A stretch of 49,996 nt of DNA from Paraglomus brasilianum. Its lineage: Eukaryota. The position numbers and the translations under genes are program-made. Position 1 is the first letter of the stretch. Every line of letters starts with the position of its first letter. Below are positions 7,063 through 49,950 of the stretch, one piece after another. Below the pieces are notes generated by a model that did not search any database, had not been told where the DNA came from, and saw only the letters and a program-made list of their open reading frames with translations. The stretch lies in NCBI GenBank assembly GCA_910592345.1, contig CAJVPI010000140.1, positions 1 to 49,996 of the forward strand, written 5' to 3'.

Positions 7063-7822
7063 TGTTACGGTCGGGAATTAAATGGGGGCTTGGGGAGAGC
7101 GATTTATCTTTCGCGTAGGCGTGTTCGTCGACCGGGAGAAGTTACCAGGCTTAGCTCGTACTATCGCCCTTAATACGATAGTTGTACAATTAAGACTGAA
7201 TTAAGCCTACAAGTGACCTTAATTATTTATGCGCGCTTTTCGTTCCCTATCCGAGTTTCAAACAAATAAGGGTATCTCTAATAGAATAATAACAACAATG
7301 ATTCTACTGTATTAAAGAATCGAAGTGGAATAATGCTATTTTAAAAATAATATAAACAGGGCTATCTTCGATTTGTTTGTTGTTCTACTAAACTAATTAA
7401 ACAAAACTCTCGTTCCGTTATTCACGTAATTGATCCGCGGACAACTTACTAGTTTGATCAAATCAATGCTATTCCGTTACAGTTTAAATGAGCCGTTTAT
7501 TGGAGTGTCCGGCCTAACAATCAATTATTTCGACGATAAAAGAATTAAAACGTATATTGATTAAAGGATTTCGGGAGAACACTACTAATATCAGTAATAC
7601 TATTAATTTATTTGAATAACAACTTCACGTTCGATGTTCGCACAACACAATCTTTTGACGATGGAAATTGAGCTACTTATATATCTTTTAGCGTCGCAGA
7701 AAAAGTGAACCGCTTTTAGACTACTAATTCCTATGAAGAGTAATTGGATAAAATATAATGTCAATCGTGGGCTTTCTTGACTGCAGAGGAAGATTTTATC
7801 ATCAGATCAGCTTGCCATAACA
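7063..7822 (-). mobile_element. Solo LTR, same family as the LTR at 37610
   Basis: Begins TGTTACGG and ends CCATAACA (terminal inverted repeat, TG...CA). About 550 bp are clearly homologous to 37610-38180. Flanks tcta/tata are an imperfect 4-bp TSD. Strand is inferred from the gypsy copy. Confidence 0.7.
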
Positions 7823-9519
7823 TATAGATATCCCTGGAGAGTTTGATTTTAAAAACATAATAATAAGGGGCGATTATTTCTCCTTGAGCTTTCTTTAATG
7901 GTGCTGCTCCATAATAATAATGGATTTGATGTAAATTAGTTTCATATTAATATTTTTATACAGAGATAGCCATATTAATATACACAGTAAATAGCACAAT
8001 CAATTTAAACGCCTTTGACTTTTCTTTTCTCTTCATCATCTTGCTCGTTATCATCCTGCTTTCCATCTTGATCTCAATTTCTCACCTCTTCATCTTCAAC
8101 TTCAAACTCACTCTTTACTCTTGGGTGTATCTCCACCCTATGTTTTACATTAATGCAAAATATTTAAATCTCTTTGATATCCTATTACAATACATAATAG
8201 CTTAATATTATTACTGATAATTTTCATAGTGTTAAATAATACATTTTAGTTCTTTGGACTTTTAAATTCAAATAAATAGTAAGACTAAAACCGACATGTT
8301 TTATTTCTACTTAATATTAAATAAATCAATGTGTTTAGTACTTGATATTCTGTTCCAATTTTGGCCCCTCTGATTGGTGGCCGCAAAATCATGCGAACGG
8401 ACAAAAAAAAGCAACGTGTACCACGATGTCAAGTATGTCTGTTGTAACGCAGAGAGAAAAACTGAAAAAGATGATTTGAAGTCACCCATAAGCGACATAC
8501 AGCAGATCGGAAACACATAACGAAACGCGGAAAATTTGTCCTCAATTTGCACCATTCTCTGATTGGAGTTTTGCGTCCCTTTATTAGTTACACCTACGAT
8601 TGAACGCTAAAGGTGTACTTGCACTAAAAAGGCGCCATTATAAACCCTCATCTTAATTAAGTTATTATATTACTCATTAACAGTACCCGAATCAAAGTCA
8701 TTTGGAAAAAAAAATGACACGACTTCAGTGCAGTCATATTGGGCGGTAATGACCTTTGTTAGATTTTTGGAATCACAATTTGCAAGAAAAATGGGATTCT
8801 TTCAGTATTAGTCCTTATTTGGATTGAGCAGTCTGGCTGACAACCATATCTGATGCGCTTCATTCCTTCATCTCTGGTATTTTTCCCAAGTCAGGAAGCC
8901 TATGTTATAATACTAATACCCTTCCAATAAATGCTGAAAATTTCTACCACGGCTACGAAATAAATTGGCCGTTTGTTAATTTTTTAAATTCTCTTTAGTT
9001 GGCTTGGTTACTGGATTTATCATTTGACAATTGGTTCTGTAATCAGACTAGAATCACTTTATACAATTGTTTATGACCATGCATTATCTCCTCAAGAAGC
9101 TAGTCGAGGCCAGACTCGAGTCTCCAGAGAGTTGTTTTTCTCCGGCTTTTTTCCCCTTAGAGCTTCCAATGGCTGTAACGGTTTAATTACAATGTTTTCT
9201 TTTCTTCCTGCGGAACGTTTAGGTGGGAGGAAGAAAGACGATTACATTGTCGCAAGCAAATATGATAACCGTTTTTAAAGCTATTTATTGTACAACGTAA
9301 GACGGCATATTGTCCATTAATGACGTTACATATCAATAACACGTTGTCGTCACCGATTCATTGACTCATCGCCGTCGTTACTCCGACGATCTACTCGTTG
9401 GTTTGAAAAAGGATAATTTTGCTGAAAAATATTCCGAGACGTAGCACAGTATTCAGCCTTCCCCACGCTATTAATTGATCGTTACAGCGATCCAATTCAT
9501 TCATATTCTATCAACAATA

Positions 9520-22139: not shown

Positions 22140-22260
22140 TTTAAGGACTTAAAAACTATTATTATTAATACACGCCTACATTAAAACCTATCATTACTAA
22201 TAAATTAGGAATAACAAGTCCTGTCAGGGAATAGGTTCCCGCGTAGCCTAAGCTGACTCC
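22140..22260 (-). ncRNA. Putative Fanzor omega-RNA scaffold / element right end
   Basis: Immediately 3' of the Fanzor stop: hairpin GGGAA-CCTA-TTCCC (22227-22240), long-range stem AGGACTT/AAGTCCT (22216-22222 with 22144-22150) and inner CTAAT/ATTAG hairpin. The position matches known omega-RNAs. Confidence 0.55.
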
Positions 22261-23802
22261 TTTTTTGTAAGATATCGACGAAGAATATTGCGAGCACCAT
22301 TAACATCTCTATCAAGGTTTGTTTTACATTGGGGACAGCAAAACACCTTAGCTTTTTTATGAATATAACCGCAGGATCCAAGTTTTACTTGTGTTACTAC
22401 TCGACAGGGATGCTCACGTGCCTTATGGATCAAATGCTGTTGAAATTGACAATGTGACCATGTAGAACCAATGCGTCGTCGGACCATTCCTTGAGTGCGA
22501 AATTCGATTAGTAATATTATGCGATAGTTTTCACAAAGCCATTTAGCTAGTTTGTGATGACAATCATTCACAAGACAACGGATCCTCTTATGAGTGCATA
22601 ACGTAATCTACAATTGAAAGTAGTATATATGTTAAATTATAAATAAATATTAAATAAATAATTTAATTAATAAAATTTACCTGTAACGTTTTCGCTTATT
22701 TTTTTTTCCATGAATACAATCGCGTTTACTTTGAAGTTTGTCGCATGCATGACTCAATCGCTAAATTCGGCCAATGTCGTTTTTTACAGCTACCCCACTT
22801 GGATCATAACCTGTCATGAATGTACGTACACCTGGATCCAGAGAAATCACTCCTGATCTCTCCTATTACATTATTAAATATATAATTGTTAAAGTTTTAA
22901 TTTAATAGATAATATAATATAATAAAAAAATTAGATCAATACCTTTTGAAATATAGGGCCTTGGTTTTCAGCCCGTATTTCAAGTGGTCTGGGTATACAA
23001 GATAATATTTCCCTCGTCGATTCATAACAAGGCGGCTACGTGTATCATATTCAAGCTTATTTGGAAGAGGTTTGATTTTAGAGAGAAATGAATATTCGCC
23101 ACGAGACTTGCCCCAGTGTTTAGAAAGTATTGTAATTGATTGTTGAGGATTTTTTGGAACGGAGCTTCATCTTGAATTTTTTACGATTGGCAGCAAAATT
23201 GGAAGAATATCCTTTAAGCAAGTCGTTCATTGCTTCATCGCGAATGTCATAGGGAGTTTAAGTTTGGTATCATTGAAGTTTTTGGCGTTGAGACATAGTG
23301 CGCGTAGATCCTTCTTTTTTTTCTTTTTCGACGGCGGTAAGGCACTGATTGTATGTCCATCGTGCTGTTCCCATCCATCTTCTGAGTTTCAGCCGCTCCT
23401 GCTGGTTGGGATAAATGCGAATACGTTGTGCCTTGCCTGCTGAAGGTTTCTTGGAACTCTTGAACCTCTTGGGCGGCTTCTCTTCTCCTTCTGCGGTTTG
23501 CAGCCTAACGTAGTCCATTATGTCGCGCCACAAACACTGTGACGATTGCGAGTAGGTCTTCTGCGAGCTCTCCATTGGTATAAACTTCTGAACCGAGAAC
23601 CACGAGCCGTGTCCCATTTTTTTCAAAGATTCACTCCACAAGTTCGGACACAAGCGGTCTTTTCGGGTAACCACCACTTCTTCGACTCCTTTAGAGTATA
23701 TTTGTTCCAAACCCTGCGTTTCCAATTGAGCCCTGTGATCTGTCCGTAGGTTGGGGAGCTGAGGACCTCCTTTGTTTGAACCGTTTTTAGTGGTGTTAGC
23801 AT
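22248..23802 (-). pseudogene. Fanzor2 (eukaryotic IS607-type TnpB) RNA-guided nuclease, degenerate, with two spliceosomal introns (22863-22942, 22608-22680)
   Basis: Motifs in order: WNKYTLKESKKWWLPEKTAC, GSWFSV, RIRIYPNQQERLKLRRWMGTARWTYNQCL (OrfB HTH), PYDIRDEAMNDLLKGYSSNF, RuvC-I VISLDPGVRTFMTGYDP, CHHKLAKWLCENYRIILL, WSHCQFQQHLIHKA, Zn ribbon SCG...CPQC, RuvC-III LDRDVNGARNI. Multiple frameshifts and small deletions. Confidence 0.92.
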
Positions 23803-25186
23803 TGAGGGGAGAGATTATGTGTTTACGATTTTAATTTTCAAATGAGCAAAATATTGTAATGGTTGAAGAGTTTGGGGGATAATGTCTTTAAATACGTTTA
23901 TGGTTGAATGGCGGAACCGAAAACATGCATAAAACATTCAATCTTATATGGAGCCTACGCGCATAAAAATGTGGGTTGTTTAAGAATGTGAGTTAAGTGA
24001 GTTAACCGTGTTTAATCATCAAGTAGACTTGGTTCGAAAATTGCACAACGGTCAACTTGCGATTGTTATTAACTAGGAATAGTATTAGCTATAATCGAGA
24101 TACGATAAACAGTGTTCATGAGAGGCTATTGTTGTGTCGATTAATGGAAACCGTTGCTTGACCTAATTGATTTTGTTCGCCACCAAATAAAGAATGATAC
24201 ATAGTAAAATAATAATCTTATTCTTGTGCTCAAACATAACTGATGACGATAACAAAAAACGGAAATTTGCATGTTTAAGCAACCTTCTTCGATGACGAGG
24301 CTAATAATAATAATTTACTTTATTGAACTGGAACAGTTGGGACTTGTACATAAATGCTTATCGCTTTGCAGTAGCACTGCTTTTGATCGTGAATATTTCT
24401 GCTTGAAATTACCGGATTTTGTTGAATTCCACCACATCATCAGGTAAACGTTCCGCATACACGAAAGATCATTATAATTATAACACAATGCAACAATATA
24501 TGTCATAACTTCAATTATAAGTTTTCTTAACGAAACCATACGATGGATGGCTATCGTTTAATTAACAGTCGTTATCATCCTTCTGGAAGTAGCAACGGAA
24601 AAAGAGCTTCGTTATTGTAATTTTAACACAAATAACATATCGAGTTATTATTATTGGTTGGGTATGTCCACAGCAATGGGGAAATTTCATATGGCCAACC
24701 ACGTATTAGTAGGAAATTAAATATATAGTCCATCCACTTTAAAAATATTGGAATCGTAAATATATTTATTATTTGTTCTTTAATACTAAAAGTTGCGCAG
24801 ACTCGAAGCGCTCTCTAAATTTTGATAAAGTGTTCTCAATAGTTTGCCTCCCCAAACCGATATGATGAAATGGGCGAGGGAGGCCCTAAATTGAAACTAG
24901 TCTATTTGCGCATTACACTTCTCAGTTCTATTATAAAATAATCAAAAGTCCTTTTTTTTTGGAGATACACTGTTTCCACGACTACCAATGCTATAATAAC
25001 TATGTCTTTTTTGATGTGATATTTTCTATACGTGTTGTTTTTATGGAATTCTTATTTTTATTAATATATATCATCATTTTATAGACAATTAATTTAACTG
25101 CCCGGTATGTCAAAAATTCTAGTTTTGAGACTGACTACGAATCCTTTTGCGACAAGCTATTGCAATATTAAGAACACACAAACTTA

Positions 25187-27200
25187 TCAAAGGAATAATC
25201 CCTCAATACCACCTTCAGCAGCAGTTTCCTAAATGAAGACAATATTATAGATTAATGTCTATCCACAAAACAGACAAAACGTCCAAGTGGACAATCAATA
25301 GTCAATAATATACTGACCTTAACAAACATTTCAAAGTATGAATATATGATTGTAACGGCCAACAGTATACCGGTACCGGATCCAAGAGCACCTGTTTATC
25401 GCAAAATGGTTTGTAAATATGGCAATTCATCAATGTTCTGCCCTAAAGTTATTCTTCTTACCGAGTAGATCAGCCATAACGGATAAAGCACCGATGCAAG
25501 CACCACCAAAAGCTGCAGCTGTTGGAATTACACGCTTCAACTCCTTGTACACAGATGTGTCACGATGACCGGCAATTATTATTCCTTGATCTTTGAGTTG
25601 TTTAGCGACATCGCGAGGAGAAGAATTGGAAACTTCAATCCACGTCTTGGAAAACAAAGCACAGGCCGACAAAGTGAACGTGACATATAAAACCGTGTGT
25701 ATAGGATCCTTAAGTGCGTCGAGAATGCTATGTGGAGGAGAGATGAAATACGCAAGGCCGCTTGAAGCATATTGCTGACTAGAGCCTTCATGTGTCTGAT
25801 ATGAAAAGAAAAAGATTTTAGTATATATCCGCAAGAGCAGTTTATTCCCTCGTACTCTCACGGTACTCACCGACCATACACCAAGCATTCTAATAAGGAT
25901 ATTCTCTGGAAATCGGTTGTACATCATTTGTGAGATAAGGAAGATATTCGAAGTCAAGGCTGATTGAAGCATAATGGGCATATTTGATGTATAGAACAGT
26001 TTGACTGGGTAAGTGCTACGCTGTCCACGGGCTCTGCGTGAAATAACAGGTATTTCGACTCTGAATCCCTGGAGATAAATAACAATGGCGAAGACGCTAA
26101 CGGTGGCCAAAAGATTCATAACATTGGGCAAGTTATTGCGATAGAAAGCCTCTTTCAGAGCACGAGTCTTGTCACCACGAGTAATAAGCAAATGGAACAA
26201 TGCGATAATGGCTCCTTCGAACTCAGGTCCACGCCCGGTATTTACAGTAGTCGGGCTGAATGCCTTCCAGATAATAGACTCGCAAATATTTGTGGCAATA
26301 AATAGCGAAATTCCCGATCCGAGACCATATCCTTTTTGCAACAACTCATCCAAAAGCATCGATATTAACCCAGCCATGACCAACTGAATGACCAACAGCA
26401 AACAGACACCAGCCCCAATTTCGGACGGATCACCGTATAGTCCCGTCAAGACAGACACAGTTGCTTGACCGAATGCAAACACCATTGCAAAGAGTTTTTG
26501 CGCACCGTTAAATAGAGCACGGTCTTCTTTCAGAGAATAGTCAACGTCGATAAGACCAGCACCGGCAAGAAGTTGCATGATCATTCCTGAAGTCACAATT
26601 GGGGTGATTCCGAGTTCCATAAGAGTTCCACGGTTAGAGGCAAGAATTACACGCAGCCAGTAGAGAGGGTCCGATGAGTCTGACGACATGATGCCATATA
26701 ATGGAATTTGGGAGCATACTAAAAAGATAAACAGCGTGACTGCTGTCCAAAGAATCTTCTGCCGGAAAGGGACCTAGTGCGTAGATATATGCATATGCAA
26801 ATATTGTCAGCATGGCAGTAAACGATGTTAAATCATAAAACGACATTATAAATGTTAGAATCACTTGTTGTGAATACTCTAACAATAAATAAATTTATGT
26901 GAAATATTGCATGGCTAATAAACTGTTCCCAGTACCTTTCGATCTGGTGCAGTCACTTCAGGAAGTATGGACATAAACGGCCTGATGAGATGAAGGAATC
27001 GGACTGGAAAGAAATAATAAATCAACGTAATGTTAGTACGAAACAAAGACTTGCCACATACTCAACAAACTCTTTCTCGCATGTCTCTTGTGAGATGGTT
27101 TGAAATCGCATCTCCTGCCAGGACATAACGACATACTGGTACTGATGACCTACAACTTGCTAACAGTTGAAATAAACCGAAACTGATACGCACATCCCAT
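25187..27200 (-). CDS. SEC61: Protein transport protein Sec61 subunit alpha; exons 27200-27194, 27003-26936, 26773-25871, 25795-25462, 25391-25318, 25228-25187
   Basis: [19 protein letters not shown]...[63 protein letters not shown]...[19 protein letters not shown]...[21 protein letters not shown]. All introns GT-AG and in frame. Confidence 0.98.
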
Positions 27201-35656: not shown

Positions 35657-35733
35657 TCCATGGCATAGAAACACCTTCAGCGTTCAATCGTAGGTGTAAA
35701 CAAATAAAGAACGCAAAACTCCATGGCATAGAA
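35657..35733. mobile_element. 49-bp insertion flanked by a 14-bp direct repeat (TCCATGGCATAGAA)
   Basis: Direct repeats at 35657-35670 and 35720-35733. The insert is the near-identical reverse complement of 8568-8616. Confidence 0.8.
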
Positions 35734-37609: not shown

Positions 37610-39510
37610 TGTTACGGTCGGGAATTAAAAGGAGGTTTGGGAGAGCGAATTTATCTTTTGCGTAGGGGGTGTTACCAGGCTTAGCGCCCTTACTACGATA
37701 GTTGTGCAATTAAGACTGAATTAAGCCTCAAATGACCTATTTTAATTATGCGCGCTTCTCACTCCCTATCCGAGTTTCAAACACTTGTGAATACAAATAA
37801 GGGTACCTCTAATAAAATAATAACAATTATTCTACTAAAGAATCGAAGGGGAATAATACTATTTTTAAATTTAAACAGGGCTATCTTCGATTTGTGTTTC
37901 GACTAGTCGGTATCCGTCACTTGTCTTTACTAAACTAATTAAACAATATTCGTCTCGATAATTAGTTATGAACTCTCGTTCCGTTATTCACGTAATTGAT
38001 CCGCGGACAGCTTATTAGCTTGATCAAATCAATGCTATTCCGTTACAGCTTAAGTGAGCCGTTTATTGGGAGTGTCCGGTCTAATAATCAATTATTTCGA
38101 CGATAGAATATTAAATTATGTATGTTTATAATAAAGGATTCCGGGAGAATACTACTAAGATCAGTAATATATTATTTTATTTCACAACATAGACAACATT
38201 ACAACATGAAGATTTATATATCTTTTCTGTCACAAGAAAGACGACACGCCTCTATATAAATTATTAACAATTAATTTTAGCGTTTGTGCTGTCACAAAAT
38301 TAGCGACACGCTGCTGCGTCTGTCACAGAATTTCTAATTGTTATTCCATCGTCAAAATTTTTGTTGTCTTTATACATTAAGTAAGTTCTTATTGCTGTTC
38401 TAGAGCGATGTACTGAGACTTCTTTTCTCCCCCTTTTAAACTTTACTAATATTTCTCCCATTCTATAATATATCTCTTTACTTAATATCATATCCCCTCT
38501 CAACTCTAATTCCATCTCTTCCTTCAATTCATTCCATTTCTCCCTCCATTTTTTTTCTCCCCCCTTTTTTCTTTCTCTCCTTCCTTTTTCTATAGTTTAC
38601 ACACTGCTCTCGATCACTGAACTTTTTTCCGAGCTTTTTTTTTAAGTTCTATGGACTTAATTTTTGTGGACGTTTCTGTGGTTGATTCCGTGGAAGACTC
38701 TACGGGAGTTTTTCTTCTAGCCCCAGATATCCTCATCGTATGGGACTTCAGTTGGTCCTTGGAGGATATATTGTCTCTCCAATTTCTTCTTCCTCCGACT
38801 GTTGGGTCATCTGGTCCCCAAGTTGGTTCTTCGATTTCGTCTTCTTCAAAGGCTGGCCTTCCGTGAATTGTAGGGTATGTTCTGGAAATCCGTAGTTATC
38901 ATTGGTTGGGAATTGTCCTGGATAATAGACTGCCCAATTATTGTTGTTGGTTGCAACGCTACCAACTGCGCCTCGTTGTTATAACTATTATATCTGCCGG
39001 ATTGATTATGATAGTCTGGGGTATCAGAGGCATTGCTTCTAGCATCTTTGTTATCTCCTCGTCGATCATCATTTTTGCAGCCTCTCGAGGAATGGATCCA
39101 TATACGAATTGTAAGGCCATTCTGCGGATTTCGTCGCCCATTCTCTGTTGGTTTTCAGTGGACCATTGTTCAGACTGCATGTATGCCCATACATCCAGGA
39201 CGTCGTCAATGGAATATTCGAAAACGATGGTTGTACTCTCATCTGTTCTGGTGGTTTTGATATAATCGGTTATTAGATCTTTTAATGTCAGAATATTTGA
39301 TGTCCGTGGATTTTTATATTTATAGAATGGTCGTAGAGAATGGTTGTGGTCGTAGAAAATTGCTGTGCTTAATAAAAAGGTTACTGTGGGTAAGTTTATA
39401 TGCCGTTTTCCGTTTTGTACTGATGTATTTTATGAGTTGCTCGTATTTTGCAGGGTGAGTGGCTTATTTTAGTCTTTCTTTTGATAGATTGGGTTTCGAG
39501 AGAGAGCATC
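37610..39510 (-). mobile_element. Ty3/gypsy LTR retrotransposon remnant (3' LTR plus deleted pol)
   Basis: LTR homologous to 7063-7822. Polypurine tracts on the minus strand at 38420-38585. Minus-strand fragments DALSRNP (RNase H end, about 39490-39510), then IFYDHNHSL and LITDYIKT (integrase Zn-finger region), giving the RH-then-IN order of gypsy. Inner LTR boundary uncertain (38296-38490). Confidence 0.7.
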
Positions 39511-45785: not shown

Positions 45786-45919
45786 ATTTTAAAGGAATTG
45801 AGTGTGCTTGACTAAATAAATTTTTCAGGGTTCAAATGACGACTCAAATATGTAATAATAGTGGGGGGTTTTAATCAGTATTGTATTCTTAACAAGCCAT
45901 TGTCACAGTATATTTGAGT

Positions 45920-46340
45920 TTCAGAATTCCAGACAACTTTGGTTTTGAACAAAGAGCAAAGCTCTTTACATTTTATTAACAAACAAACAATATAATATAA
46001 TAACAGCAACAAGAACATCATCACTCCTCCAACGTCTCTTTCTCCTTGGCTTTCAAACATTTCCAAAATTTCAGACAACTTTTGAACAAAGAGCAAAGCT
46101 TTTACATTTTTTTTATTAATAAATAAATAATATAGTAAAATAAATAATGGCAACCAGAACATCATCACTCCTCCAAAATTTCAGACAACTTTTGAACAAA
46201 GAGCAAAGCTCTTTACATTTTATTAATAAACAAATATATAATATAATATAATATAATATAATATTGAATATAATAAATAATGGAACCAGAACATCATCAC
46301 TCCTCCAACGTCTCTTCTCCTTGGCTTTCAAATATTTCCA
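45920..46340. repeat. Complex local tandem duplication (three partial copies of a CAGACAACTTT...GAACAAAGAGCAAAGCT...AGAACATCATCACTCCTCCAA unit)
   Basis: Directly visible repeated blocks starting near 45930, 46070 and 46180. Confidence 0.85.
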
Positions 46341-46674
46341 AGAGGTATTCTACCTCCTCTTGGTAGACGTTGGTTTCGGAGTTCTCCAGGATCTCCAGGG
46401 TGGCAGTGGTGGTGGTAGTAGTGGTAGTAGTGGTCGGGGTAGTGGTCTGGTCGGGGAGGTAGTGGGGGAGGTAGTGGGGGTGGTGGGGGTGGCAGTGGTG
46501 GTGTGGCTACTGCTTTCTGAAAACTTTTTGCGGCGGCCACTTGTCCAGGAAGTCTTTCTTAACGATTGCCATTTCGAGTCACTAAGTGACTTCCACGCGT
46601 CCATCGCAAGCTTCATGCCACTACCGTTTGAAAAAATCCACCGCGAATATTTGTGCCGCCCCACACGGTCTCTT

Positions 46675-46972
46675 CGGACGCCCATCCACTCTTAGAGTAT
46701 TGTTGTACTCGAAGAGTTCCTCCTTGCTGGAAACAAGACGTGCCAACTCTTGGTTAAACTGTTGTTCGACGTCGGGAGGAAGAAGGTGATAAAAGACATT
46801 TTTTTTGTAGTAGTAGTAATAGTAGTGGTGGTGGTAGTAGTAGACGGACGCCCATCCACTCTTAGAGTATTGTTGTACTTTAAGAGTTCCTCTTTGCTGG
46901 AAACAAGGCGTGCCAACTCTTGGTCGAACTGTTGTTCGACGTCGGGGAGGAGGAAGGTGATAAAAGACATTT
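46675..46972. repeat. 128-bp direct duplication (46675-46802, 46845-46972) of a minus-strand ORF start, separated by (GTA/GTG)n
   Basis: Both copies begin MSFITF on the minus strand. The upstream copy reads MSFITFLLPDVEQQFDQELARLVSSKEELLKYNNTLRVDGRP; the other is frameshifted. Confidence 0.9.
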
Positions 46973-48999
46973 GGTAGTAATGGTGGTTGGTGGTAAGAGT
47001 AGTAGTATAGTAGTAGTAATGGTGGTAGGTGGTAGGTGGTAGAGTAGGAGTAGTAGTAGTAATAATCACTTTGTTGGTGATGTTCTTTGCAAAAAGTAAG
47101 AGATGTCAGCTTTATAGGAAGTATTACCCGTAGATATCCAGGGTTGTCACACCATCAATTGGTTACTCGCGTTCCTATTTTTGTATCGATTACTACAGCA
47201 CAAGAATGACAAATTGGTTAAGCACAGTTGTTTTAGGACTAGTCTTGTAACAACAAATGCAGTCGATTACATCACACGCTCATGTCATCAAAAAGCATAA
47301 GCTCTATATTTCCTAGTCAATGAATGTCATTTGTACAGTGTTATAAATACTGTGTTCATTAGTGTACAGAGAATCTTGAATGTTTTCGTAGAAAATCAAA
47401 GCAAACATCCTTCTTCTCTATTCGAGTGATAGTGACATTCATACGTTTTATTGCTGTGTTCCATCGACGTTCCATATTGTGTTTCTATTGTCATGCAGCT
47501 TATACATGCAGCAGCATACCTTTTAAGCTCCTGTTGCTCAGGGTAACTGATGGCCATGGACTGATGAGCTGATAAACCTTGTTGGCATACAGCATCAGAC
47601 TCACTGTATATTACAGTAGTCGATAAATAATGATTTAACCAACGAATATTACTCATACCAACGTTTGTTATTATATACATTACGCAGTATAGGTTTAATA
47701 TTAATTAAGTTTTATTAGATTATCTTGAATATGGCGGTGTTACTATATTTGCATTTTCTTATTTCCATTATCGGATATTCACTACTACTTACATTACGAT
47801 TAACATATTTCACAATTCACTTCTTGTTGTGTGCTAGCAGGTTGGGAGGTGTCGTGTGTGCAGAAAATGCTGCATTCGTTAAAGGGGTTGTGGTTGTGTT
47901 TCAACGGTACTGGCGGCGAGGCTGGACGATTTGTTGGTTAAGTGGTCGTGATTATTATTTTGAGTCTGTATATGATATTTGTGAGTTTGTTGGTTTTTTA
48001 TATTTACAGTAATAAAGATACCAAATTTTTTACCTAATGAATTTGTGATTGTATGATTCTACTTGTTGACAACGTTGTGTTTTTGTATAGTACTATTTCG
48101 GTTGGGGGATCATGTGAAAAATAAACAACTCCTTTCAAATAATGAAGGTGGATATCGTCTATGATAGCGAAACTACTTTGGTTGCTTTAAATTTAGAAAG
48201 TAAATTGTATAAAAAATGGTACTAAGTCCAGCCTTAATTCACTGACAAATATAATCGTCATTACGTTTTACATATTCTGGTATTTTTCTCGACGGCGGAG
48301 TCATGAGGCACGGCAAATCTGAAATAAAGTGTTTATTTATTTCTTCTTCAGACTAACCAAGAACATGCGGTTTTTTGTATAGTCACATTACGCGCGGCTT
48401 TGGCATATGGAATGATACAAAAAGCTTTTAACGCTCTGGAATCGAAGCGTAACAAAGACCTCGATGACCTCTGTGCTCGACAGCCATATTTCTGCATCAG
48501 GTCAAACTCAACTGTAAATAATGTGATCATTAAAGGAAAATAATTCTTACTTTACATGAAATTTTATGCGCTGTATCCATTACTAGCTTATTATTATGGC
48601 TAATTACCCCTCACGAACTGGGGAGCTTTGTCGGCCTTTGCAACCCTATACCCTTTTTATGTTTGGTGTGAAAGACCTGAAACGTAATCGTTATCTTCAC
48701 CTTGCAATTGGTTAATCATCCAATAGACTGCCCTGCCCAGGAATGAAGTCAGTAGATAATAATAAAGAACAAAGAGACGGAATGTTGATTCACATTTACC
48801 ATTAGATCCCAAATGGCCTTAAAAGAATTGTAAGATCATCGATAATAACAGTTATCAGTCACTGGACATGTCCAAACAGGTGCATTATTACACAAAATCT
48901 GATTGCAAATAAAGCCACAAAATACAACCACAAATTAGCAAATAGTTATTTGAAATCGTCCAACATAAATACTCGATTATTATATTGTTATGACCAACA

Positions 49000-49950
49000 G
49001 TACTTTTAAAACACACATAACCATAAAATATACAATGCTTGCATACTGACTATTTTAATGTCATTCTCAGTTTTTTTACAAGATACTTTGACATAAACAA
49101 AGATTTTAATCATTCAATAATACAATATGCTTTATCAAATCATTTCTTATCTGTAACAACAAAAAGAAACTTGGTGAAACATCAATAAATATTATTAATG
49201 ATTAAATTTAAAAATAATAAAATGCTGTTATACTAGTATCGAATTGATCCTTTACTTCAATGAACTTAAATGTCAATATTATCATCCTTTTTTAATGTAC
49301 CTTTGCTTTCAAGAGTTTCTTTTTTCTGCTTCTTGAGGACTTTTGAACAAGGCCTTTTACTTTCTGTGTAGCCCACTTGCAAACTATCCTTGTTGACACA
49401 ATATGAGTTTCTGTCTTGTAAATGTCCTGCTGTTAAAATTGCTTCTATAACACTCAAAAATAAAAAGCTTTTTGCATCCTTTCAGGTTTTAGTTCACAAA
49501 TAATTCATGAGATGAGGGCCAGGTAACATGAAAGTGGCAGTTAAATCTTCTATTTATAAGTTTCTGTAAAGCATCCTTGTGTAATTTTAACCTCCTTTCT
49601 TTATTAATATGAATAGTATCTCCATGTACTCTGAAAATAACATAGTCAAATGATCTCTTTCTGACTGTACTGCAGCTATTTGTATCCTTAATTCATCAGC
49701 AGTCATTGGCTTTCCTCCTATATTCTGTTTAATATTAATGAACATGACCCCAAATTGTTCCAATGCCTCATCAAATGCAAAATAATTTTGGTACTCATTA
49801 AATTAACCAATGCAACATGTTTTAAGAGTGTTCATAACTGAAGCTCATTTGCAAGGTAAGACAGAAAGTAGGTGACTAGTGGAAATAACATAATTATGTT
49901 ATTTCCACTTAGTATAGGTTATTCCCACTCAGTAAGGTTATTCCCACTCA
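49000..49950 (-). pseudogene. CpG-depleted decayed coding relic of unknown family
   Basis: About 1 CpG in 49000-49950. Broken frames such as NEYQNYFAFDEALEQFGVMF, GGKPMTADELRIQIAAVQSERDHL and VIEAILTAGHLQDRNSY. Confidence 0.35.

Follow-up and report, generated by a model that had tools for sequence, protein, structure and literature searches.

A decayed IS607-derived Fanzor2 element in a mycorrhizal-type fungal genome and the nested transposase and nuclease genes of its relatives

How can a bacterial two-gene insertion sequence stay autonomous in a nucleus, given that eukaryotic ribosomes scan and as a rule yield a single protein from each mRNA? The locus described here lies in a window of 49,996 nucleotides (the whole stretch of DNA analysed), and its family offers a testable answer. 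Our main reading, to which we assign a probability of about 0.7, is that the window carries a dead copy of an IS607 element of mycorrhizal fungi, whose relatives nest the transposase gene (tnpA) in the Fanzor gene (fz) and would obtain both proteins from a single spliced mRNA, with TnpA started at a CUG codon and most ribosomes scanning on. We also lean, if only slightly, towards the view that this is an active, autonomous IS607 element in mycorrhizal fungi, which would have turned an operon into a bicistronic mRNA, traded the AUG for a CUG in strong context and placed both genes under the control of one intron.

The locus is a decayed IS607-derived Fanzor2 element in a fungal nuclear genome. 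A preliminary description of the window had already proposed a Fanzor2 in a fungal genome, and Pfam hits, a phylogenetic clade shared with Fanzor2 (Fz2) proteins and a glomeromycete Sec61-alpha gene next to the element bear this out. The Pfam profiles HTH_OrfB_IS605 (E 1.5e-9, 23273-23830) and Cas12f1-like_TNB (E 3.3e-9, 22251-22607) matched, and the motifs WN..KKWWLP, SWFS, SLDPG (Asp codon 22838-22836) and DRDVNGARNI (from 22313) were located where they had been reported, on the minus strand between 23830 and 22248. None of the outcomes named beforehand as speaking against a Fanzor2 was encountered: HMM hits were obtained, the contig is no contaminant and the protein grouped with Fz2. The host gene for Sec61-alpha (25430..26773, minus strand; Pfam and protein comparison) lies outside the element. 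Six glomeromycete proteins share 89-91% identity with its product, and among the 120 matches listed no other named protein exceeds 84%; the host is therefore an arbuscular mycorrhizal-type fungus.

Alignment with related loci (L numbers) placed the whole IS607/Fanzor2 element at 22173..24048 on the minus strand (1,876 bp, no terminal inverted repeats), which replaces the extent of 22140..23960 given earlier. In runs of the best-matching organism, which may be the source of the window itself, read depth was higher across 22173-24048. In two of these runs, contigs with unique flanks ended at 22201-22209 and began at 23939-23945, and since many diverged contigs piled up between them, the element is multicopy. 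The expectation of a multicopy family with intact members was thus borne out by the contig pile-up and by intact relatives from soil metagenomes. No joint spanning the whole element, as from an empty allele, occurred among the contigs of four runs, contigs showing presence and not absence.

All parts of the element lie on the minus strand. Next to the left junction ACCG (24049..24052; left-junction comparison), the predicted target site and target-adjacent motif (TAM) with CG as the likely crossover core, follow the left end and leader (23969..24048), which are internally deleted and match the left-end blocks of L003, L013 and L018. A foreign high-copy repeat of ~220 bp (23750..23968) then sits where the 5' half of tnpA and the start of fz should be. 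It has the highest read depth, with loose ends at 23745, 23790, 23956 and 23968, reaching up to ~20x that of the left flank in one run, and was found in other contexts in the same organism as well; among 257 loci it is shared with L012 only (L012 17-207), with an identical junction. The ATG at 23802 proposed as the fz start is indeed present, but it lies inside this foreign insert and is not the start used by the family. What is left of tnpA (about 23270..23748; homology search, tblastn), namely the C-terminal half of the serine recombinase with its tail, is broken by indels and stops. It is overlapped in the +1 frame by the N-terminal domain of the first fz exon remnant (22943..23709), which also encodes HTH/REC/WED and carries several frameshifts (motifs, Pfam, tblastn and indel comparison). 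The remainder of fz consists of intron i1 (22863..22942, 80 nt, GT-AG, phase 0), at a site common to relatives, an exon with RuvC-I (SLDPG; 22681..22862; motif, tblastn), intron i2 (22608..22680, 73 nt, GT-AG, phase 2), which is kept in the same clade as i1, and a last exon with the RuvC-II region, zinc ribbon and RuvC-III (22248..22607; Pfam PF07282 and indel list versus L014). The predicted omega-RNA scaffold and right end (TGTAGGCG; 22173..22262) rest on a predicted hairpin and pseudoknot, and the right flank (22153..22172), which varies among copies after a fixed first T, would provide the guide.

Decay, as previously claimed, is extensive. Compared with its closest relatives L050 and L014, the window copy is 93-94% identical in aligned columns and differs by 17-19 indels. 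A 16-nt deletion near 22395 (indel list versus L014) removed the catalytic glutamate of RuvC-II, the first cysteine of the zinc ribbon is gone and ~25 nt of one right-end RNA stem are deleted. Neither the missing glutamate nor introns i1 and i2 had been recognised in the preliminary description. The CUG, the fz AUG and intron i0 are likewise missing from the window copy, so that what is said of these three features rests on its relatives. The window copy is a dead deletion derivative of an autonomous element with tnpA and fz, and would be movable in trans only, provided that its damaged left end still works. Elsewhere in the window, we observed two copies of another dispersed repeat (7063-7613 and 37610-38182; 76% alike over 616 columns, no long ORF), a 54-bp repeat in opposite orientation (8564-8616 and 35671-35723; 91%), imperfect tandem repeats (45919-47005; 69-85% alike) and a perfect 32-bp palindrome (49878-49909).

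The preliminary description saw no serine recombinase and proposed a non-autonomous family without TnpA. Neither statement survived: under the Fanzor N-terminus, at about 23748-23270, the C-terminal half of an IS607 TnpA can be read in the other frame, with the motifs GLNWKRR, VEEVVVTRKDRLC and ELAEDLLAIVTVFVARHNG and a tail to KLQ-stop, and relatives carry both tnpA and fz, the window copy being the deletion derivative. The search for copies with a linked serine recombinase that had been suggested was productive, as L012, L050, L013, L018 and L073 carry tnpA at the same place. Pfam made no call on the broken remnant. A 59-residue TnpA query (P0001) matched 61 of 86 candidates, among which are a Rhizophagus clarus protein annotated as 'IS607 family transposase' and Diversispora epigaea resolvases, and tblastn of the remnant gave 91% identity over 112 aa to P0023 and 73% to P0034. 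The best solved-structure matches of the family's TnpA were IS607 serine recombinases, and the combination of a TnpA serine recombinase with an N-terminal MerR-type HTH, which is expected of IS607, is present as a remnant in the window and whole in relatives. Broken tnpA genes were found in L013, L025, L066, L079 and L009.

On the nuclease side, the features of a Fanzor2 were recovered in a eukaryotic host: DPG at RuvC-I in the window, and a RuvC-II glutamate shifted beside the zinc finger (EEYTSKTC) in relatives. The best structure match of an Fz2 profile was 9b0l, Fanzor1 (Fz1) structures scoring far lower (E 1e-2 vs 1e-13); a phmmer search of PDB sequences with the Fanzor of the intronless relative L009 gave no match, whereas the profile search did. 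The predicted model of the L009 protein aligned with ApmFz2 over 311 residues (Z 17.2, rmsd 4.9); it is disordered to residue 86, ApmFz2 matches from residue 87, and TnpBs match from about residue 186 only. HMM and fold alignment reach ApmFz2 residue 53 onward, so that the N-terminal domain, described in the available part of PMC11832414 as unique to Fanzor2, is present in this relative and the overprinted stretch includes it. In a tree of 53 rows (FastTree and a quick method; ten chosen loci without a usable ORF left out, no Fanzor1 row), the window fell into a clade of support 99 with L018, L003, L006, P0012 and the proteins named as Diversispora and Gigaspora; the cyanobacterial rows and those of canonical TnpB stand apart, and the grouping is with Fz2/pro-Fanzor. 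A Fanzor1 affiliation, with a eukaryotic DDE or Helitron transposase as partner, is not borne out: the partner is an IS607 TnpA, and Fz1 structures rank far below 9b0l. The Fz2 of the window family is predicted to be an RNA-guided nuclease. Side observations in the same comparison concern an intronless sister clade (L028-L031, L033, L034 and L038), in which no tnpA was detected, a 2-kb contig in a 'Bacteroidetes' metagenome-assembled genome (L082), which groups with non-cyanobacterial metagenome Fz2 rows and may be misbinned, and a viral scan with the fungal profile, which returned one locus. Hosts of metagenome loci were assigned via protein similarity.

In intact relatives, tnpA lies almost wholly within fz, with 776 of its 828 nt overlapping in the +1 frame and an overlap of 776-779 nt across L001, L002, L003 and L006. 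Among 20,000 synonymous recodings of TnpA, only 0-34 left the +1 frame free of stops (four loci). Over the TnpA core (HTH and catalytic domain), pN/pS of the TnpA frame was 0.11-0.33 in four lineages; that of the Fz frame was ~1 over the same core, 0.34-0.47 across the TnpA tail and 0.17-0.25 where fz stands alone. As pN/pS is near 1 there, visible selection on Fz over the TnpA core concerns openness of the frame and a few motifs only. The nesting is not restricted to fungi: 77 of 80 GTDB pro-Fanzor loci, mostly cyanobacterial, carry tnpA, all in the +1 frame and 75 overlapping the nuclease ORF, and 15 of the 16 viral loci found with TnpA show +1 nesting. For two distant canonical TnpBs of phages that are accompanied by tnpA, the overlap amounts to a few bases only. 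On this comparison of loci, the tnpA/fz nesting predates the fungi.

Introns i1 and i2, both AT-rich with GT-AG ends, are conserved within a single clade of loci, the i1 site being occupied in L012-L015, L018, L021, L024, L025, L043 and L050, and the R. clarus gene model GET01997.1 joins at the i1 site. L011 and L059 lack both introns exactly to the base, and L011 is 93-98% identical to the intron-bearing L013; the two sequences are either spliced transcripts or precise intron losses, the record type (DNA or RNA) not distinguishing between these. A contig skipping 22607-22680 was considered as evidence of splicing and rejected, as 11 other letters occupy the gap. L020 has an apparent separate insert near the i1 site. 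A third intron, i0, was present in 14 of 30 fungal-clade sequences, absent from five including the window, and unscored in 11; it is missing exactly from L079, which may be a DNA copy that lost the intron, and the Diversispora gene model P0028 reads across its junction. Removal of the three GT-AG inserts restored the frames, removal of i0 restoring both frames together. With i0 removed, L001, L002, L003 and L006 encode a TnpA of 275-276 aa and an Fz of 590-592 aa; with i0 retained, TnpA ends at 135-137 aa and Fz at 124-152 aa (three loci tested). The Fz of L004 and L005 is truncated (494 aa).

None of the fungal-clade loci has an in-frame AUG for tnpA. In 12 of 12 scored fungal-clade loci the start position is CUG, a count made without L013, whose tnpA is decayed, and without three loci cut at the 5' end. 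The same position is AUG in 8/10 other metagenome, 24/27 viral and 38/54 GTDB loci (10/54 GTDB loci have no ATG, GTG or TTG in the scored stretch), and the relative P0039 has Met there. The context A-3/G+4 of the CUG was kept in 13/13 loci despite indels just upstream, although the search pattern itself required an A..CTG context. These 12-13 CUG loci amount to about 8 independent lineages, L001-L005 and L010 being near-identical, and invariance of the codon is weak by itself, as the same holds for 5 of 15 conserved Leu columns. The next AUG follows 52-61 nt downstream in the +1 frame and corresponds to the fz start in 12 of 13 loci (lost in L079). The first 17 TnpA codons, upstream of the fz AUG, had a pN/pS of 0.19-0.39, a value resting on 13-16 codons, and L018 carries an in-frame 9-nt duplication within them. 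Between 1 and 19 codons before the CUG, a stop closes the tnpA frame, and within the element no AUG precedes tnpA in L018 and L066. The simplest reading is that TnpA would initiate at the CUG, with leaky scanning to the fz AUG.

Other readings of the locus have to be weighed against this. IS607 is a prokaryotic family, and one might suspect that the contig has taken up bacterial DNA, from a contaminant or an endosymbiont, through misassembly; spliceosomal introns, multiple copies in the organism's own runs, the surrounding intron-rich fungal genes and the glomeromycete clade refute this and leave it next to no probability. Hardly more credible is a TnpA-less, non-autonomous Fanzor2 family. This would suit the lack of an intact recombinase ORF in the window and of a TnpA match in L028-L031 of the sister clade, but the remnant is 73-91% identical to IS607 transposases and the closest relatives carry tnpA, so that this reading is refuted for the family.

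It is very unlikely that tnpA is untranslated in fungi and that the elements spread by Fanzor-driven homing, duplication or another enzyme: the missing AUG and the many decayed copies point that way, and against it stand the purifying selection that four lineages show on TnpA across its HTH and catalytic domain and the precise CG|T junctions of near-identical copies at new sites. A start of TnpA elsewhere, in an element with introns as described, is possible but doubtful, be it by a frameshift after the fz AUG, an upstream host exon or another near-cognate codon. The CAG found 6 nt past the CUG in most loci could be a splice acceptor, and in NCBI gene models such as P0028 tnpA is joined to upstream exons; however, L066 and L009 lack that AG, a frameshift start would skip the first 17 codons with their purifying selection and their in-frame duplication in L018, and the stop shortly before the CUG closes the frame to an upstream start.

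The ends of the element were defined by the junctions. In eleven sequences (L013 and L024 representing one site, and L014 stopping there), the right end reads GTAGGCG, followed by T and then unrelated sequence. On the left, similarity starts at ACCG|T in an unbiased alignment, and the left junction is ACCG or ACTG in 10 of the 14 sequences compared, the DNA before it being unrelated and the pattern used having contained the motif; left ends were not located in L001, L009, L025 and L073. L003-L005 share a 30-nt left extension of captured flank (L003 396-435), with a new junction at ACCG|T or AACG|T. These left and right junction alignments define the CG core and the element boundaries at 22173-24048. 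In line with IS607, there are no terminal inverted repeats or target duplications, and both junctions share a dinucleotide core, CG(T); no end repeats were found in the window element. From the junctions, target and TAM are predicted to be (A)CCG. A family statement in PMC13565253, as far as its available text goes, gives GG for IS607 insertion. The core here is CG and not GG, and since the TnpA is clearly IS607 we take it as a variant of target choice.

At the right end, a hairpin is predicted whose loop pairs with the terminal GTAGGC, along with a long stem. Hairpin and pseudoknot were paired in 93% of 100 cells, with 7 compensatory changes, all in the hairpin, relatedness inflating such counts; the pseudoknot pairs are mostly invariant and hence show no covariation. 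A structured right-end omega-RNA with a pseudoknot and a variable guide, as in Fanzor2, is thus predicted, and a search of Rfam with the right end returned one chance-level match only. Outside the fungal clade, L019, L040, L041 and L061 also have the GTAGGCG right end and the pseudoknot, and the CG core may be common in the clade.

L001-L005 are 99.5-99.9% identical over about 2.1 kb and have five different right flanks, and their proteins are 95-96% identical to the D. epigaea gene models P0010 and P0028. This suggests recent transposition of IS607 in a Diversispora-like host and in fungal nuclear genomes. Under initiation at the CUG, one spliced mRNA would give TnpA from this codon while most ribosomes scan on to the Fanzor AUG, an arrangement that would keep the transposase scarce. 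By analogy with the known family, TnpA would cut the element out in the form of a double-stranded circle and integrate this at (A)CCG|T with CG as the core. The emptied donor site would be cleaved by Fz2, directed by the right-end omega-RNA and a guide taken from the flank, and the element would be regained through repair on the filled sister. The predicted TAM is CCG, and GCG stands at the element's own end. The IS607 mechanism and restorative homing are treated in the accessible part of PMC13565253.

The window locus is a fossil of a known kind, and the expression strategy of its family appears unusual and well supported by comparative sequence. As for the new programmable nuclease initially suggested, the family offers one more Fz2, glomeromycete Fz2 proteins being included in Suppl. 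Table 1 of Saito et al. 2023 (PMC10432273); what is unusual, and had escaped the preliminary description, is how the two nested genes would be expressed. Intact copies are available (L002, L003 and L006), and the analysis corrects public gene models that mix both frames and gives exact ends, the guide boundary and a TAM prediction. Mycorrhizal fungi are hard to manipulate genetically, and if the reading is true they harbour a native serine-recombinase integrase and an RNA-guided nuclease with the TAM CCG.

Parts of this picture have precedents. In the portion of Suppl. Table 1 of PMC10432273 at hand, Fz2 of Rhizophagus, Diversispora and Ambispora appear as automatic gene models only, some mixing both frames and one being a TnpA-Fz chimera, and these genera are not mentioned in the text supplements of PMC10530073, as far as available. 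That Fanzor genes can contain introns is already reported in accessible sections of PMC10530073, and Fanzor2 is placed within IS607 in those of PMC3627910. 'Two overlapping ORFs' are given for IS607 in general in the passages available of Gilbert and Cordaux 2013 (PMC3673617), Bao and Jurka 2013 (PMC3627910) and Kojima 2026 (PMC13565253), and PMC3673617 there calls IS607 transposition in a eukaryotic genome unconfirmed. In the literature as partly accessible, we found no account of a CUG start, a both-frame intron or, for mycorrhizal fungi, the architecture of IS607; one might be contained in Repbase, ISfinder, subscription papers and some supplements.

Among known systems, the eukaryotic IS607-like elements of PMC3673617, PMC3627910 and PMC13565253 ('IS607EU') likewise combine a serine recombinase with TnpB and lack terminal inverted repeats and target site duplications. 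The available text of these accounts covers no Glomeromycota, introns or start codons, whereas the fungal family has near-identical copies at several sites. The cyanobacterial pro-Fanzor IS607 elements (Yoon et al. 2023; 10.1101/2023.08.09.552727, PMC10711439) are the closest prokaryotic relatives and have the same +1 nesting; unlike the fungal family, they have no introns, and their tnpA has ATG, GTG or TTG in 44/54 loci. The accessible portion of that paper describes the pro-Fanzor origin and not the tnpA/tnpB nesting. NlovFz2 of Naegleria lovaniensis has a measured 5'-CCG TAM, according to the part of Saito et al. 2023 (PMC10432273) at hand; this is the motif predicted here. ApmFz2/ApmFNuc of Acanthamoeba polyphaga mimivirus (PDB 9b0l), as described in the available parts of PMC11832414 and PMC10530073, likewise has an N-terminal domain before the TnpB core, DPG at RuvC-I, a shifted RuvC-II glutamate, a zinc ribbon, an IS607 TnpA partner and a right-end RNA. 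Unlike ApmFz2, the fungal family has a nuclear fungal host, spliceosomal introns, a putative CUG start of tnpA and a predicted CCG target.
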